64,000 nt of DNA from Burkholderiales bacterium (GTDB lineage Bacteria > Pseudomonadota > Gammaproteobacteria > Burkholderiales > JAHFRG01): the NCBI GenBank assembly GCA_035624535.1, contig DASPRI010000030.1, forward strand, positions 3,067-67,066. Direction: 5' to 3'. How positions within the stretch are numbered: the first letter of the stretch is position 1; every line of letters starts with the position of its first letter. The translations under genes were made by a program, and so were the position numbers. Positions 3,568 through 60,265 of this stretch are shown piece after piece. The notes under the pieces were generated by a model. That model had not been told where the DNA came from. It did not search any database and saw only the letters and a list, made by a program, of their open reading frames with translations.

Positions 3568-3918
3568 CTATTCTTCAAACGCGCTTTTTATCCACTCAAT
3601 ATCCCGCCGGCGCATTCCGCTTAGCAATACCGCGTCGAAACGGCAAGGTGCAGTTCCCCGTCTGGAAGCGAGGTAGTGACGTGCTGCCTTAAGCAGCTTT
3701 TCACGCTTTTTGGCGGTTATGCTTGCCGCCGCGCCGCCGAAATTGGCGTCAGTACGCAACCGCACTTCTGCAAACACCAAAGTGTCGCCGTCGCGAAGTA
3801 CCAGATCGATCTCGCCGAAGCGGCAGCGATAGTTGGTTTCCAATAATTTTAAACCTTGGTTTTGCAGAAAGGTCGCCGCTACGCGTTCCGCCGCAAGACC
3901 TTCAGCGTTTCGGTTCAT
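3568..3918 (-). CDS. yraN: YraN-family (UPF0102) predicted endonuclease
   Basis: 116 aa with a GEIDLV core, positioned between lpoA and the SIS gene as in the enterobacterial yraM-yraN-diaA-yraP block. Confidence 0.85.
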   Translation of the reverse strand: MNRNAEGLAAERVAATFLQNQGLKLLETNYRCRFGEIDLVLRDGDTLVFAEVRLRTDANFGGAAASITAKKREKLLKAARHYLASRRGTAPCRFDAVLLSGMRRRDIEWIKSAFEE

Positions 3919-7061: not shown

Positions 7062-7574
7062 TTACGGAAACGCGGGAATCGTCGGCTCCACTCCTCCTAG
7101 TGCGGCTTCCGGATGGCGCTTTTCTACTAACGCATGTATTTGTTCTACTTTGCGAGCCGGGACGTCTACCATCATCAGAATCTTTCCTTCTTCGATGTCC
7201 TTGGCAAATATCGATAGCTTGGAATTCGGCACCGCGCTGGCCACCAAGCTGGACACCCAGGCGCCCAGAACCGCACCTATCAATGCAGCAATCAAAACTG
7301 TAACCAATTGCAAGCTTACCCCTTCGGGAGGCGCGAATACCATCAGAATGCCAACCGCCGTTCCCCCGGCGCCGCCCAGGACCAGCCCCAATTCTGCCCC
7401 GTGCACAACATCGGTTTTTTGCAAGACATTCGCTTCGTGGAGATTGCCTAGAGGAGCGTCACGACGGGCCAGGCAATGGATATGGCTTTCTTCGACGCGG
7501 GAAAGCAATAAATCATTCATAGTCTGCTGGGCGCTTGCAACATCCGGAAGGACAAAATATAGCCTTCTTCTCAT
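7062..7574 (-). CDS. Predicted membrane protein (DUF1269-like)
   Basis: 170 aa with a soluble N-terminal domain, two central glycine-rich hydrophobic helices (LGLVLGGAGGTAVGILMVF and LIAALIGAVLGAWVSSLV) and a soluble C-terminus. Confidence 0.55.
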   Translation of the reverse strand: MRRRLYFVLPDVASAQQTMNDLLLSRVEESHIHCLARRDAPLGNLHEANVLQKTDVVHGAELGLVLGGAGGTAVGILMVFAPPEGVSLQLVTVLIAALIGAVLGAWVSSLVASAVPNSKLSIFAKDIEEGKILMMVDVPARKVEQIHALVEKRHPEAALGGVEPTIPAFP

Positions 7575-17183: not shown

Positions 17184-18338
17184 ATGGCATACGCATTGCA
17201 AAAAAGGCGCGCGCCGCTCCTAGAATTTGATGTATCGCTCGTTTGGGTAACTCTTACCTTGCTGAGTCTGGGGCTGGTGATGGTGTACTCGGCCTCGATA
17301 GCCATTGCCGAGGCAGGCAAATGGCATCAGCCGACCTTCTTTCTAATGCGGCATGCGGTTTTTATTGGCATCGGCATTGCGCTGGGAGCAACCGCATTTC
17401 AATTGCCGATGCAGCTTTGGCAGCGCATGTCTCCCTATCTGTTCTTGTTTGGCGCGGGCCTACTGGTATTGGTGCTGATTCCCGGAATAGGCCGCGAAGT
17501 CAATGGCGGCCAACGCTGGCTGCCGCTGGTTTTCGTTAACTTGCAGCCTTCGGAATTCATGAAACTCTTGGTGGTTATTTACGCCGCCGACTATACGGTG
17601 CGCAAGGCTGCGTGGATGCACAGCTTCCGCAAAGGTTTCCTGCCGATGTTGCTAGTGATGCTGCTGATCGGGGGACTGTTACTGCAAGAGCCCGATTTCG
17701 GCGCATTCGCAGTGATCACCGCGATCGCCATGGCGATCCTGTTTCTCGGAGGAATGAACTGGAAGCTTTTCGCTGGATTGATCTGCATGCTGATTATCGG
17801 TTTCCTGCTGTTGATATGGAGTTCACCCTATCGCATGCAACGCGTTATCGGTTTTATGGATCCTTGGGCGGATTCCTTTGGCAGTGGGTATCAATTGAGC
17901 CACGCGCTGATTGCATTCGGACGTGGCGCATGGTTGGGCGTGGGACTCGGTGGCAGCGTTGAAAAACTGCTTTACCTGCCTGAAGCGTACACCGATTTTC
18001 TGCTCGCTGTAATCGCGGAAGAGCTTGGGTTCGCCGGGGTCGTTGTGGTTATCGCGTTGTTCGCGTGGTTGGTGATGCGGGCGTTTGCCATTGGCCGTCA
18101 AGCGACTTATTTAGAGCGTTATTTTTCCGCGCTGGTAGCGCAAGGCATCGGCGTGTGGCTGGCAGTGCAGGCAATCATCAATATCGGGGTCAACATGGGT
18201 GTGCTGCCCACTAAGGGTTTGACTCTGCCGTTGATGAGCTTTGGCGGCAGCGGTATGGCTGCAAACTGCATTGCGATTGCATTGCTGTTACGAGTGGACT
18301 GGGAAAACCGCCAGCTCATGCGGGGGAAGCCCGTATGA
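17184..18338 (+). CDS. ftsW: Peptidoglycan glycosyltransferase FtsW (SEDS family)
   Basis: 384 aa, polytopic SEDS protein (PSEFMK, LQPDFG-like [16 protein letters not shown]). It starts immediately after the murD stop. Confidence 0.95.
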
Positions 18339-18425
18339 GCTGGCAGGTTTCGGTGGAGGCTAACGTGGCGACAACCAACGTTATGCCGGAACCAAAACCA
18401 GGGCTCATGCGGGGGAAGCCCGTAT
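18314..18425 (+). repeat. 23-nt perfect direct repeat of the ftsW 3' end flanking a 66-nt insert
   Basis: GCTCATGCGGGGGAAGCCCGTAT occurs at 18314-18336 and again at 18403-18425. The insert at 18337-18402 contains the conserved core 18348-18397, which is shared with the sucD 3' region. Confidence 0.9.
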
Positions 18426-18427
18426 AG

Positions 18428-19510
18428 ATGAGCCGCGCGATATTGATAATGGCGGGAGGCACCGGCGGCCATGTGTTTCCCGGCTTGGCCGTGGCGGAAT
18501 TTTTCAGGCAGCAAGGGTGGCGCGTGGTGTGGTTGGGCACGCACGCAGGCATGGAGGCGAAGTTGGTCGTGCAACAAGGATATGAAATGGCATGGGTGAG
18601 CTTTTCAGGTGTGAGAGGAAAAAGCGCGCTGCGCTTTTTGTTGCTTCCGATGAAATTACTAGTGGCATTCTGGCAGTCGGCGCGGGCGATATTCAAGTAT
18701 CGGCCGGATGTGGTGCTCGGCATGGGCGGTTATGTGGCTTTTCCGGGGGGAATGATGGCCTCCTTATTAAATAGGCCGCTGGTGATACACGAGCAGAATT
18801 CAATAGCTGGCTTGGCCAACAAAATACTGGCAAAACTCGCAGACCGCGTTTTAGTGGCTTTCCCTGAGGCGTTTGGCGCGGCAACGACTGGAATCCAAAT
18901 AGTTACCGGAAATCCGGTGCGCAGCGAAATCCTGACCATCGAGCCGCCCGAGACGCGCTATAGCAAGCGTACGGGACCGTTACATGTACTGGTGGTGGGC
19001 GGAAGCTTGGGAGCGCAGGTGCTCAACGAGACGGTGCCGCAAGCTTTGGCGCTATTGCCGCGCGAGGCCCGGCCACTGGTCACTCACCAATCAGGTGCAC
19101 AACACTTTGCTGCTCTCAAGGAAGGATATGCGCGCGCCGGCGTCGAAGCGCGCGTTGAAGCATTTATCGCCGACATGGCGCATTGCTACGCGGAGTCCGA
19201 TTTGCTGATTTGCCGTGCCGGTGCGCTCACCGTTGCTGAAATCGCCGTTGCGGGTATCGCCAGCATCCTGGTGCCTTATCCGCTGGCAGCAGACGATCAC
19301 CAGACCCACAATGCGCGCCACCTATCGGACCAGGGGGCAGCCTGGATTCTTCAGCAAAGTGATTTGAGTGCGCGTTCGCTCGCCGATCTGTTGCGGGGAA
19401 TTAATCGTGAGAATTTGCTGCAAGTCGCGCGCCGCGCGCGGCAGCTCGGAAAGCCCGACGCTACCCAGTTAGTGGCACGCTCATGCATGGAGTTGGCTTA
19501 TGCAGGATAA
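18428..19510 (+). CDS. murG: UDP-N-acetylglucosamine--N-acetylmuramyl-(pentapeptide) pyrophosphoryl-undecaprenol GlcNAc transferase
   Basis: 360 aa beginning ILIMAGGTGGHVFPGLAVA, with a GT28 fold, in the expected dcw position. Confidence 0.95.
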   Translation: MSRAILIMAGGTGGHVFPGLAVAEFFRQQGWRVVWLGTHAGMEAKLVVQQGYEMAWVSFSGVRGKSALRFLLLPMKLLVAFWQSARAIFKYRPDVVLGMGGYVAFPGGMMASLLNRPLVIHEQNSIAGLANKILAKLADRVLVAFPEAFGAATTGIQIVTGNPVRSEILTIEPPETRYSKRTGPLHVLVVGGSLGAQVLNETVPQALALLPREARPLVTHQSGAQHFAALKEGYARAGVEARVEAFIADMAHCYAESDLLICRAGALTVAEIAVAGIASILVPYPLAADDHQTHNARHLSDQGAAWILQQSDLSARSLADLLRGINRENLLQVARRARQLGKPDATQLVARSCMELAYAG

Positions 19511-44137: not shown

Positions 44138-44583
44138 AGCTAAAACCCCATTTCTACACGGTGAAAATCACTCGACTAAACCTCAGACATCCGAGCGCGT
44201 CGCAGCTCGGTTGCTGGTAATTTGAGACTGCTTGCTTCGTCGCTTTAGGACGCGTTGCCATCGACTTTTCGCGCACCCATCCTACAATACGGGCCAAAAA
44301 ACTGATACCGCCGATATTGCTTAAAACACCGATGCCTAACCACGATCGCATTGGCACAGGCAAACCGCCCCAACCCGAAGCCTCCGCGCTGATACCTGCA
44401 CTGGCCAACATAACATAAACGGGGGCCTCAAGATTTTGTGCAAGCGACGGCTGATTTTGACCGTGCACCGAAATATGCTGCTTTTTTGAGCCCCATGCGT
44501 TCCACGCAAGATTCATTCCAGCCAATTTTAGCTCCGCGAAGGCAACTAATCCAATTTATTAGTTCACATTTATTATTTCAAGC

Positions 44584-58848: not shown

Positions 58849-59223
58849 TAAAATCCCTCTCGATGTGCTTCAGTTTCGCGCAGCGTTAACGTCTATCCAG
58901 TGATTCAGGCACTGTTGGCAAAACTCTACAAATATTGTTCAGCTTGCGAGGGCTGGCAGCAGCTGCAAGCGCAGACCGATGTAAATCTCAGTCCAAAAAT
59001 GGACCACCGGTCGCAAGGCTTGCGTACACGATCATTAGAAACCGGCAGGGGCTCAAGGTTCTGATGTCTAATTGGCGCAAAACATTTTGAAGACGGTTGA
59101 GCTTCTGTTACACGCGTATTTTAAATGCTCGCCCGTTGCCGCAACGCTGCAGGTGCCTTCAGTTGCGCAGCATTTTACCACGATTGGCCGGTAGCGTCGG
59201 CATGCTATCGGGTTTCGCGAACC

Positions 59224-59459
59224 TTAGCCTGCACCGAAAATTGGCCTCATAACATGGACTTCACCAGCTTGCCCATCTCGGCAGGATTGCGGGTGACTTT
59301 GATCCCACACTCTTCCCTTATTTTGCGTCTTTTTGGTTCCGGCATAACATTGCGCTTGCCGCAATGTTAGCCTGCACCGAAAATTGGCCTCACAGCACGG
59401 ATTTCACCAGCTTGCCCATCTCGGCAGGATTGCGGGTGACTTTGATCCCACACTCTTCC
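59224..59459 (-). repeat. 93-nt direct repeat (89/93 identical) duplicating the sucD 3' end, stop codon and 23 nt downstream
   Basis: Copy B (59367-59459) comprises the last 22 codons (plus one base of the preceding codon) of sucD, its TGA, and 23 nt downstream. Copy A (59224-59316) lies 50 nt further downstream in the sucD sense. The four mismatches all fall in the last four sucD codons. Confidence 0.9.
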
Positions 59460-60265
59460 ATCACGGCCAATTTTTCTTGGGCGGTTCCTTTACCTCCAGA
59501 AATAATCGCGCCCGCGTGGCCCATTCTTTTCCCAGGCGGTGCAGTCACTCCTGCAATAAAACCAACCACCGGCTTTTGCATGTTGTCCCTAATCCAGCGA
59601 GCACAATCTTCTTCGTCGGTGCCGCCGATTTCTCCGACCATAATCACTGCGTCAGTATTCGGATCTTCATGAAACATTTTCATGACATCGATATGTTTGA
59701 ACCCCCCAACCGGATCGCCGCCGATGCCGACGCAGGTAGATTGCCCCAGCCCTTGCTCCATCAATTGTCCTACCGCTTCGTAAGTCAGCGTACCTGAGCG
59801 TGAGACCACACCGACACGCCCTTTCTTGTGTATGTGTCCCGGCATGATGCCAATCTTAATTTCATCCGGCGTAATAACCCCGGGGCAATTCGGACCAATG
59901 AGAACCGTTTTCTTGTCCCGCATCTTGTAGCGGGTGCGGATCATGTCGCGCGCTGGTATGCCCTCGGTGATGCAGATCACCAAATCGAGCTCGGCTTCTA
60001 CCGCTTCATCAATCGCCGCCGCTGCGAATGGCGCAGGAACATAAATCACCGAAACGGTGGCGCCAGTTTTCTCCCGGGCTTCGCGTACCGTGTCGAAAAC
60101 CGGGATACCCTCGAAATCCTGTCCGCCTTTGCCCGGAGTGACCCCTGCGACGAAGCAGTTTCCGCCATTCGCGTAATCGCGGCACATGCGCGTATGGAAT
60201 TGGCCAGTTTTACCGGTTATCCCCTGAGTCATGACCCGGGTATTTTTGTTGATTAGAATCGCCAT
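59390..60265 (-). CDS. sucD: Succinate--CoA ligase [ADP-forming] alpha subunit
   Basis: 291 aa beginning [21 protein letters not shown], with SRSGTLTYE and the active-site MGHAGAI. Confidence 0.95.

Follow-up and report, generated by a model that had tools for sequence, protein, structure and literature searches.

The ftsW and murG genes in a 64,000-nucleotide stretch of a Burkholderiales bacterium genome (contig DASPRI010000030.1 of GenBank assembly GCA_035624535.1; this whole stretch is called the window below) are separated by a 66-nt insert that is flanked by two copies of the end of ftsW. Most probably this insert is one copy of a mobile hairpin element, which we call E, that is widespread in Betaproteobacteria and apparently undescribed. 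Copies of E lie at many other genes, sucD in the window included, and there too the adjoining gene tail is commonly duplicated. At ftsW the downstream tail copy forms the end of a small open reading frame (ORF), here named the relay ORF, that runs from the ftsW stop codon to the murG start codon.

The sequence GCTCATGCGGGGGAAGCCCGTAT is identical at positions 18314-18336 and 18403-18425, a spacing of 89 nt. This repeat is not due to chance: no other occurrence with up to three mismatches was found across the 64 kb, and none of 100 dinucleotide shuffles contained one. As a first-pass annotation of the stretch had recorded, the first copy is followed by GA, which completes the TGA stop of ftsW, and the second by AG, which completes a TAG (18425-18427) directly abutting the murG ATG at 18428. 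That annotation took 23 nt to be the whole duplicated unit, which is in fact longer and anchored at an A-tract. The repeat extends on its 3' side as GTATGAGC in the first copy versus GTAT[AGAT]GAGC in the second and, with a 3-nt indel, on its 5' side as GAAAAC (18303-18308) versus CCAAAAC (18392-18398). The first copy is spanned by a 22-nt inverted repeat (arms 18303-18324 and 18330-18351), and the sequence GAGCTGGCAGGTTTC, the 3' arm of a long hairpin at 18305-18350, joins the first tail copy through a shared GAGC. The first two codons of the relay ORF (ATG AGC) are the same as those of murG. A search of the spacer for promoter-like or terminator-like sites found none.

E is a structured repeat of roughly 50 nt (about 50-110 nt) whose core has two basal helices, an internal loop of symmetric GNA/GNA form, a helix from which a single pyrimidine bulges and a stem-loop that varies. 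In an alignment of 16 copies, compensatory changes were present in 8 of the 18 base pairs, 95.5% of the cells were paired as compared with 29-47% in controls with slid partners, and the covariation score was reached by none of 500 shuffles. A covariance model built from this alignment, whose E values are rough, finds two copies of E in the window, at 18339-18402 (+) and 59326-59391 (-). We also scanned metagenomes with a sequence pattern and obtained at least 134 copies in 119 contigs; the metagenome counts given here and below are among the matches listed. In 131 distinct metagenome copies 95% of the cells were paired versus 30-46% in the controls, and 336 cells showed double changes versus 98 in shuffles. 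Pairs of the G.U type numbered 89 versus 41 A.C, and at the sole position that is neutral to the search pattern there were 45 U.G versus 7 C.A. Since G.U is in excess over A.C, folding can be assigned to the strand that has the orientation of the genes. A search of Rfam 15 gave no match at an E value of 10 or below on positions 18000-18800, and none on six loci with divergent variants. Neither E nor an insertion that regenerates gene tails was found described in the open-access literature searched, although a description elsewhere is possible.

The comparison with relatives used 80 FtsW loci from bacterial genomes sampled at one per species, all of them of Betaproteobacteria type; the closest are three uncultured "Burkholderiales bacterium" metagenome-assembled genomes (MAGs) with 88-91% identity. 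About 27 copies of E lie in these 80 dcw loci, between ftsW and murG, between mraY and murD and once between murG and murC, mostly in the orientation of the genes. More than 170 further copies were found overall in betaproteobacterial genomes and metagenomes, and the metagenome copies (at least 134) follow many different genes. The insert, which the first-pass annotation treated as a one-off, belongs to a dispersed family of structured elements. A purely local event, namely replication slippage or tandem duplication at ftsW/murG around an unrelated spacer, might be promoted by direct repeats 89 nt apart and a local palindrome, but it is very improbable here: the spacer matches the covariance model at 70.6 bits, homologous copies occur at other genes in the window and elsewhere, only the flanks and not the whole unit are repeated, and the family census contradicts it.

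The second copy of E in the window follows sucD directly and shows the same geometry without a relay ORF (Table 1). The duplicated sucD tail is outside any ORF, has no adjacent downstream start codon and has behind it a second, degenerate element (about 59185-59243). Homology between the sucD repeat units breaks exactly between GGCTAA and C (on the plus strand, between G and TTAGCC). The position of this break, an extrahelical base and a terminal structure of variable form would suit an integron attC-like single-stranded recombination site in which the inner box of E, GGCTAAC...GTTAYGCC, corresponded to R''/R'. We consider such an identity hardly credible and rejected it, because E has a conserved outer helix and an A-tract that are foreign to attC, the GTT is not invariant (loci L044 and L068 carry GAC...GTC in place of AAC...GTT), and copies of E are single, lie in essential operons and are accompanied by long target duplications that attC recombination does not make; no integrase is encoded in the window. 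Because E duplicates tails also where, as at sucD, there is no coupling to preserve, the duplication arises from the way the element inserts. It was therefore not a later resolution of the ftsW/murG junction, as had first been proposed; the same duplication accompanies E at many genes.

Table 1. Features of the ftsW-murG junction and of the sucD site in the window (positions counted from its first letter)
Feature	Positions	Strand	Evidence
ftsW coding sequence, 384 aa, tail LMRGKPV, TGA at 18336-18338	17184..18338	+	ORF list; Pfam FTSW_RODA_SPOVE, E value 3.5e-99
Target A-tract GAAAAC (Glu-Asn of the conserved W-E-N), 5' limit of the duplicated target	18303..18308	+	matches the E 3' end CCAAAAC
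Tail copy 1 (X1): 23-mer 18314-18336 plus GAGC; FtsW LMRGKPV, TGA and overlapping ATG at 18335	18314..18340	+	
Relay ORF, 30 codons, ATGA overlap with the ftsW stop, TAG abutting the murG ATG	18335..18427	+	equivalent conserved in relatives
GAGCTGGCAGGTTTC, the target start GAAAACCGCCAGCTC in inverted copy, at the 5' edge of E	18337..18351	+	inverted repeat; RNA fold; other copies
E core, GTTTCGG...CCAAAAC	18347..18398	+	covariance-model match 18339-18402, 70.6 bits, E value 9.5e-24
Tail copy 2 (X2): 23-mer 18403-18425, then AGAT plus GAGC; GGGGGAAG, TAG, murG ATG	18403..18433	+	
murG coding sequence, 360 aa	18428..19510	+	Pfam Glyco_transf_28, Glyco_tran_28_C
sucD repeat copy 2: untranslated sucD tail, then degenerate second element	59224..59316	-	no start codon; TAA just before the copy
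Second copy of E, directly after the sucD stop	59326..59391	-	covariance model 58.5 bits, E value 3.7e-19
sucD repeat copy 1: sucD tail, stop and first 17 nt of E	59367..59459	-	93-nt direct repeat, 96% identity, spacing 143
sucD coding sequence	59390-60265	-	identity confirmed

Across the family, copies are arranged as ...(G)AAAA-X-(stop)-Z-[E...CCAAAA]-X-..., in which X is the duplicated tail and Z is a variable segment. The 5' flank was repeated in the 3' flank of 86 of the 134 metagenome copies (64%). The duplications measured 21-154 nt (median 51). The second tail copy begins 0-12 nt past CCAAAA, and the first usually ends 0-5 nt past the stop codon of a co-oriented ORF; such an ORF ended no more than 130 nt upstream in 71 of 95 copies. 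An AAAA lay at the position homologous to the terminal A-run of E in 51 of 85 duplicated copies, versus 0.35% at random. The 8-12 nt preceding E were complementary to the start of X (score of at least 6) in 15% of copies versus 1.4% with mismatched flanks; the complementarity is limited to these nucleotides adjoining E, and the idea that Z is a full inverted copy of X was rejected. At the dcw loci nearly every copy of E has the sequence of its 5' flank again in its 3' flank, MraY tails of 44-76 nt being among the repeated stretches. The A-tract is supplied by the FtsW W-E-N codons (TGGGAAAAC), by the MraY K-E-N codons and, in one case (L120), by a GAAAA in a tRNA anticodon loop.

Several loci show other outcomes of insertion. 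Minus-oriented copies of E are present in the ftsW-murG gap of L034 (4297-4367), L069 (1622-1725) and L071 (4203-4266), where the first 17 or so murG codons (ILIMAGGTGGH) are duplicated in place of the FtsW tail and the anchor is the T-run of His-Val-Phe codons; in L034 the two copies of these murG 5' codons are identical at 80 of 80 nt. In L120 (111-361) insertion into the anticodon loop has left a split, decayed tRNA copy beside an intact tRNA (Rfam tRNA match at 289-361, 71.6 bits). Tandem arrays of two to four units, each a tail plus E, were found in L008 (4161-4436), L113 (11-371), L106 (5128-5335) and L020 (4143-4370); in L008 a separate 31-codon ORF is present in every unit, and in L020 a single ORF spans two units. 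Elsewhere in the window, two weak covariance-model matches, at 44450-44482 (-) and 3703-3751 (-) with E values of 0.018 and 0.09, retain just the outer TTTCGG...CCAAAA helix and could be collapsed remnants of E or chance matches. A 170-aa ORF upstream of mraZ (7062-7574, -) had no Pfam match at an E value of 1e-5 or below.

These data also bear on whether E might be a host cis-regulatory RNA, acting for example in processing, stability or protein binding to adjust relative expression inside operons, that originated at or was recruited to these junctions, with the tail repeat as a functional part and not a footprint of transposition. Folding of the sense strand, as the G.U and U.G excesses indicate, the co-orientation of 71 of 95 copies with the upstream ORF, long retention at mraY-murD and ftsW-murG with an ORF under selection, and the very high predicted stability of the junction RNA are all in keeping with such a role. 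We nevertheless regard it as rather improbable, since the same element with its duplication occurs behind unrelated genes, in reverse orientation (L034, L069 and L071) and in a tRNA (L120), the second sucD tail is untranslated and has no near downstream gene, tandem arrays are common, and the A-tract anchoring and the inverted target copy are signatures of insertion. A regulatory role would also agree with co-option by the host at a later time, and to that extent it overlaps with insertion of a mobile element as the origin of the arrangement.

The comparison of junctions in relatives that the first-pass annotation had called for supports its proposal that the insert entered a contiguous junction. 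About half of the 80 relatives, and most of those that lack the insert, have an ATGA overlap of ftsW and murG, and removing the insert with one repeat from the window recreates such a junction. This comparison shows the ATGA overlap to be the ancestral state of ftsW/murG. For the clade of the window itself, the earlier junction could equally have read ATGA, the second copy then gaining AGAT, or TAG-ATG, the first copy then losing four bases; the relay ORF stays in frame under either history. A spacer of 89 nt homologous to that in the window is present in L002 and L003; L001 lacks an insert, its junction reading TAAATG. Ten or more distant lineages carry ftsW-murG spacers of 90-145 nt that contain the common core GTTTCGGYGNAGRCTNAC-stem-GTNAYGYCGNAGCCAAAAC, the end of each being a copy of the FtsW tail of the lineage concerned. 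The tail-insert-tail layout, including AGAT, is common to eight independent assemblies with ordinary point differences between them (L002, L003, L085, L163, L167, L168 and L172 share it). An assembly artefact, in the form of collapsed or chimeric reads, has nothing in its favor beyond the general risk that short repeats carry and, in view of this natural variation across independent assemblies, is the least probable of the explanations considered. Another type of ftsW-murG spacer, in which Shine-Dalgarno-like heptamers (GTGAGGA, GAGGACT, GTGACCA) are repeated 3-6 times, was seen in L012, L016, L045, L078, L079 (after 1470), L092 (after 1221) and L134 (after 7076).

Because the duplication extends past the ftsW stop codon it includes the downstream start codon, and from this codon an ORF reads through Z and E and on into the tail's second copy. 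The first-pass annotation had instead proposed an ORF, VATTNVMPEPKPGLMRGKPV followed by a stop, beginning at GTG 18365 behind a GGAGG at 18355-18359. Those letters are present in the window, but they belong to the structural core of E and are not conserved as a start: L003, for one, has GTGAAGGCTAACGTTGGT. The conserved start is the ATG or GTG codon that overlaps the ftsW stop by 4 nt, which is found in 23 of 34 loci. These 34 are the loci with a recognizable second tail among 39 ftsW-murG loci with E. Every one of the 34 second tails has its stop codon at the homologous position. In 28 of them no further stop interrupts the frame on the way back to the end of ftsW; the other six are arrays in which the frame restarts in each unit. 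In the 28 single-element loci the spacer was free of stop codons in the tail frame in 26, versus 6 and 7 in the other two frames. The spacing of 3n+2 that an ATGA start needs was seen in 50 of 85 copies. Lineages differ in the frame in which E itself is read (VSVEAN versus FRRRL), so it is not conserved as coding sequence. Readthrough of the ftsW stop as the means of translating the second tail was rejected on the 3n+2 spacing at ftsW, a spacing of 146 in L056 and the conserved start codon. The only locus fused to murG is L064 (4155-5384, a Gallionella MAG), where the second FtsW tail lacks a stop and an ORF with an ATGA start runs through E into murG, with a predicted MurG N-terminal extension of about 45 aa.

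The two tail copies differ mainly at synonymous sites. Comparison of FtsW tail copies gave 53 synonymous differences (Sd) and 22 nonsynonymous differences (Nd), a ratio of nonsynonymous to synonymous proportions (pN/pS) of 0.15 (p = 2e-15). For the MraY tails (19 codons, 8 genomes), pS within genomes was 0.60-0.82 and pN 0.02-0.09; between second copies of different genomes pS was 0.51 and pN 0.039, and the second copies were each other's nearest neighbors across genomes. The ORFs at the mraY site have a length of 47-57 aa. The synonymous saturation and the clustering of second copies imply that the duplication is old and the relay peptide constrained. For mraY, the same two observations led us to reject gene conversion as an explanation of the synonymous bias, and an origin of one tail copy from a foreign ortholog is unneeded, since comparison of second copies shows them to evolve in a coding-like manner. 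In L023 (1273-1512) the MraY tail copies differ at 2 of 57 nt, as compared with 10-15 in other genomes, which points to recent gene conversion there. On these substitution patterns and open frames, the relay ORF has demonstrably been kept by selection across lineages. That the second tail evolves like coding sequence, and that matched codons flank a structured gap after a stop, might suggest programmed ribosomal bypassing or another form of recoding, in which the repeated tails would serve for take-off and landing and the second copy would encode the real C-terminus. This is extremely unlikely, as the first copy completes the protein with its own stop codon, the conserved overlap start accounts for translation of the second, the gaps of 86-212 nt are far above those of known bypass elements, and the sucD copy is closed by a stop.

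The history that we propose for the window is as follows. E would have inserted at the A-tract GAAAAC, some 30 nt short of the ftsW end, and the target would have been duplicated from the A-tract to just past the ftsW stop and murG start. The upstream copy would thereby preserve ftsW with its tail and TGA, and the downstream copy the initiation region of murG, namely GGGGGAAG, which is likely the murG Shine-Dalgarno sequence, a local hairpin and the ATG. That both the C-terminus of FtsW, stop codon included, and the region of murG initiation are restored by the duplication had been noted at first pass and is supported here. The ancestral murG ATG, duplicated as the ATG at 18335, would open the 30-codon relay ORF, which re-reads the FtsW tail in frame. 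Both the ATGA at 18335-18338 and the TAG-ATG at 18425-18430 are stop/start arrangements of the kind found in translationally coupled gene pairs. Since the relay ORF starts in overlap with the ftsW stop and its TAG abuts the murG ATG, ribosomes can pass from ftsW to murG, and we infer that they may do so by two successive steps of termination and reinitiation. The predicted fold of the junction RNA (18296-18450) has a free energy of -78.2 kcal/mol (z = -7.2) and contains three hairpins, of which the first (18305-18350) contains the AUGA, the second is the E core, and the third (18402-18434) has a 3' arm that includes the murG AUG and a loop with GGAAG. Selection for an open frame and the sequestration of the murG AUG in this modeled hairpin lend indirect support to coupling.

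The mechanism of insertion that we favor can be sketched from the junctions, whose geometry fits insertion at staggered nicks. The A-rich 3' end of E would prime or anneal at a T-run of the target, giving a tight 3' junction; the new strand may then snap back on the GTTT/AAAC helix of E and copy a few target bases, which would yield the inverted copy; and the strand would finally be joined by microhomology (GAGC/GCTC here). Nicks staggered by 21-154 nt would produce the duplication, and selection would retain only those insertions whose duplication regenerates a gene end. A bolder version of this scheme, in which E is a bacterial SINE-like retroposon whose hairpin RNA, borne by host mRNAs, is copied at nicked T-runs through target-primed snap-back synthesis by a trans-acting reverse transcriptase, and in which the relay ORFs of the cell-wall operon have been co-opted as conserved micro-proteins mimicking the C-terminal MraY and FtsW tails, is in our estimate a possible but unlikely one.

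Several observations weigh against mobility and relay translation as set out here. No reverse transcriptase, transposase or integrase recurs beside E at the 119 metagenome loci, and none is present within the window. No pair of filled and empty alleles was seen within a species, so mobility is deduced from the distribution of E and the geometry of its junctions. Of the 134 metagenome copies, 48 (36%) have no detectable flank repeat, and the segment Z (0-63 nt) lacks an explanation; comparison of Z segments with one another for transduced source-locus sequence yielded none, all matches being orthologous sites or array units. With neither an enzyme nor a transduced flank, RNA and DNA intermediates are equally open. 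The scan pattern was derived from dcw copies and many metagenome copies are orthologous sites, so the counts are not independent and overstate independence. Translation of the relay ORF is deduced from the reading frames, and the amino acid-level constraint on the second tail exceeds what coupling alone requires; it may reflect a functional micro-protein or a peptide that needs to be harmless.

If the proposed history is true, a mobile element can enter essential, translationally coupled operons harmlessly, since the chemistry by which it inserts restores both the end of the gene and the initiation region of the following one. Such an insertion would leave behind a small ORF maintained by selection and would thus offer a route to new micro-proteins and to the uncoupling of overlapping genes. 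The signature at the junctions, with anchoring at an A-tract, duplications that are long and variable and an inverted copy of the target, would resemble target-primed snap-back synthesis, which is undescribed for bacterial repeats, and the mechanism could be tested in culturable Gallionellaceae, Methylophilaceae and Sulfuriferula. The tail-element-tail pattern occurs in many betaproteobacterial dcw clusters, and annotators should not call it a misassembly.

[quoted passage not shown] Members of those groups likewise lie mostly at gene ends, are sometimes co-transcribed and are able to affect the expression of neighboring genes. E is set apart from MITEs, which make short duplications of fixed length, and from REPs, which make none, by A-tract-anchored duplications of variable length that regenerate gene tails and by its inverted target copy. 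MITEs have terminal inverted repeats that match those of a parent insertion sequence; the ends of E, GGTTTCGG and CCAAAACC, are imperfectly complementary, and no parent insertion sequence was seen near the 119 loci, ISfinder not having been searched. REP/BIME are extragenic palindromes of 20-40 nt with a conserved 5' tetranucleotide, no target duplication and an associated RAYT gene, whereas E has another conserved core and duplicates its flanks in 64% of copies; no RAYT gene was seen near E, co-occurrence with RAYT itself not having been tested. As for attC, with its outer R''/R' boxes (RYYYAAC...GTTRRRY), L boxes, cassette arrays and IntI, only the inner box of E bears a resemblance.

The junctions of E invite comparison with eukaryotic retroposons. 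Target-primed retroposition of the type used by short and long interspersed nuclear elements (SINEs and LINEs) is known from eukaryotes; in target-primed reverse transcription the A-rich 3' end abuts the downstream duplication, the target is an A/T-run, and the duplications are long and variable, as is the 5' side. E has the A-rich 3' end joined to an A/T-run target and the variable duplication; unlike SINEs and LINEs, it came with no partner reverse transcriptase, RNA intermediate, 5' transduction or bacterial counterpart that we could find. Long variable direct repeats of 8-514 bp, for which there is no mechanistic model, are also made by IS1549 and IS1634 (PMC2266710). These members of the IS1634 family resemble E in their direct repeats and differ from it in being autonomous elements of 1.5-2 kb with DDE transposases in Mycobacterium and Mycoplasma. 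A preprint (bioRxiv 10.1101/2022.03.14.484287) describes enzyme activities that could yield an inverted copy of adjacent template and microhomology joints. The parallel would be a mechanistic analogy alone, with no evidence of such an enzyme acting on E.

A 2024 review of prokaryotic MITEs describes nothing like E and offers only in-frame insertions of Rickettsia palindromic elements (RPEs) as an analogue (PMC10969869). RPEs are also small palindromes that are translated within ORFs and tolerated in essential genes (PMC10969869). They lie in frame within the host protein, whereas E would leave the host protein unchanged and be translated as part of a separate relay ORF. Stop/start overlaps of the ATGA type in operons are classically linked to termination-reinitiation. 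The relay ORF resembles such coupled pairs in starting within an overlap with ftsW and in stopping against the murG ATG. It would differ from ordinary coupled pairs in that coupling proceeds by way of an intermediate ORF, one that derives from the insertion of a mobile element and whose peptide tail is itself under purifying selection.

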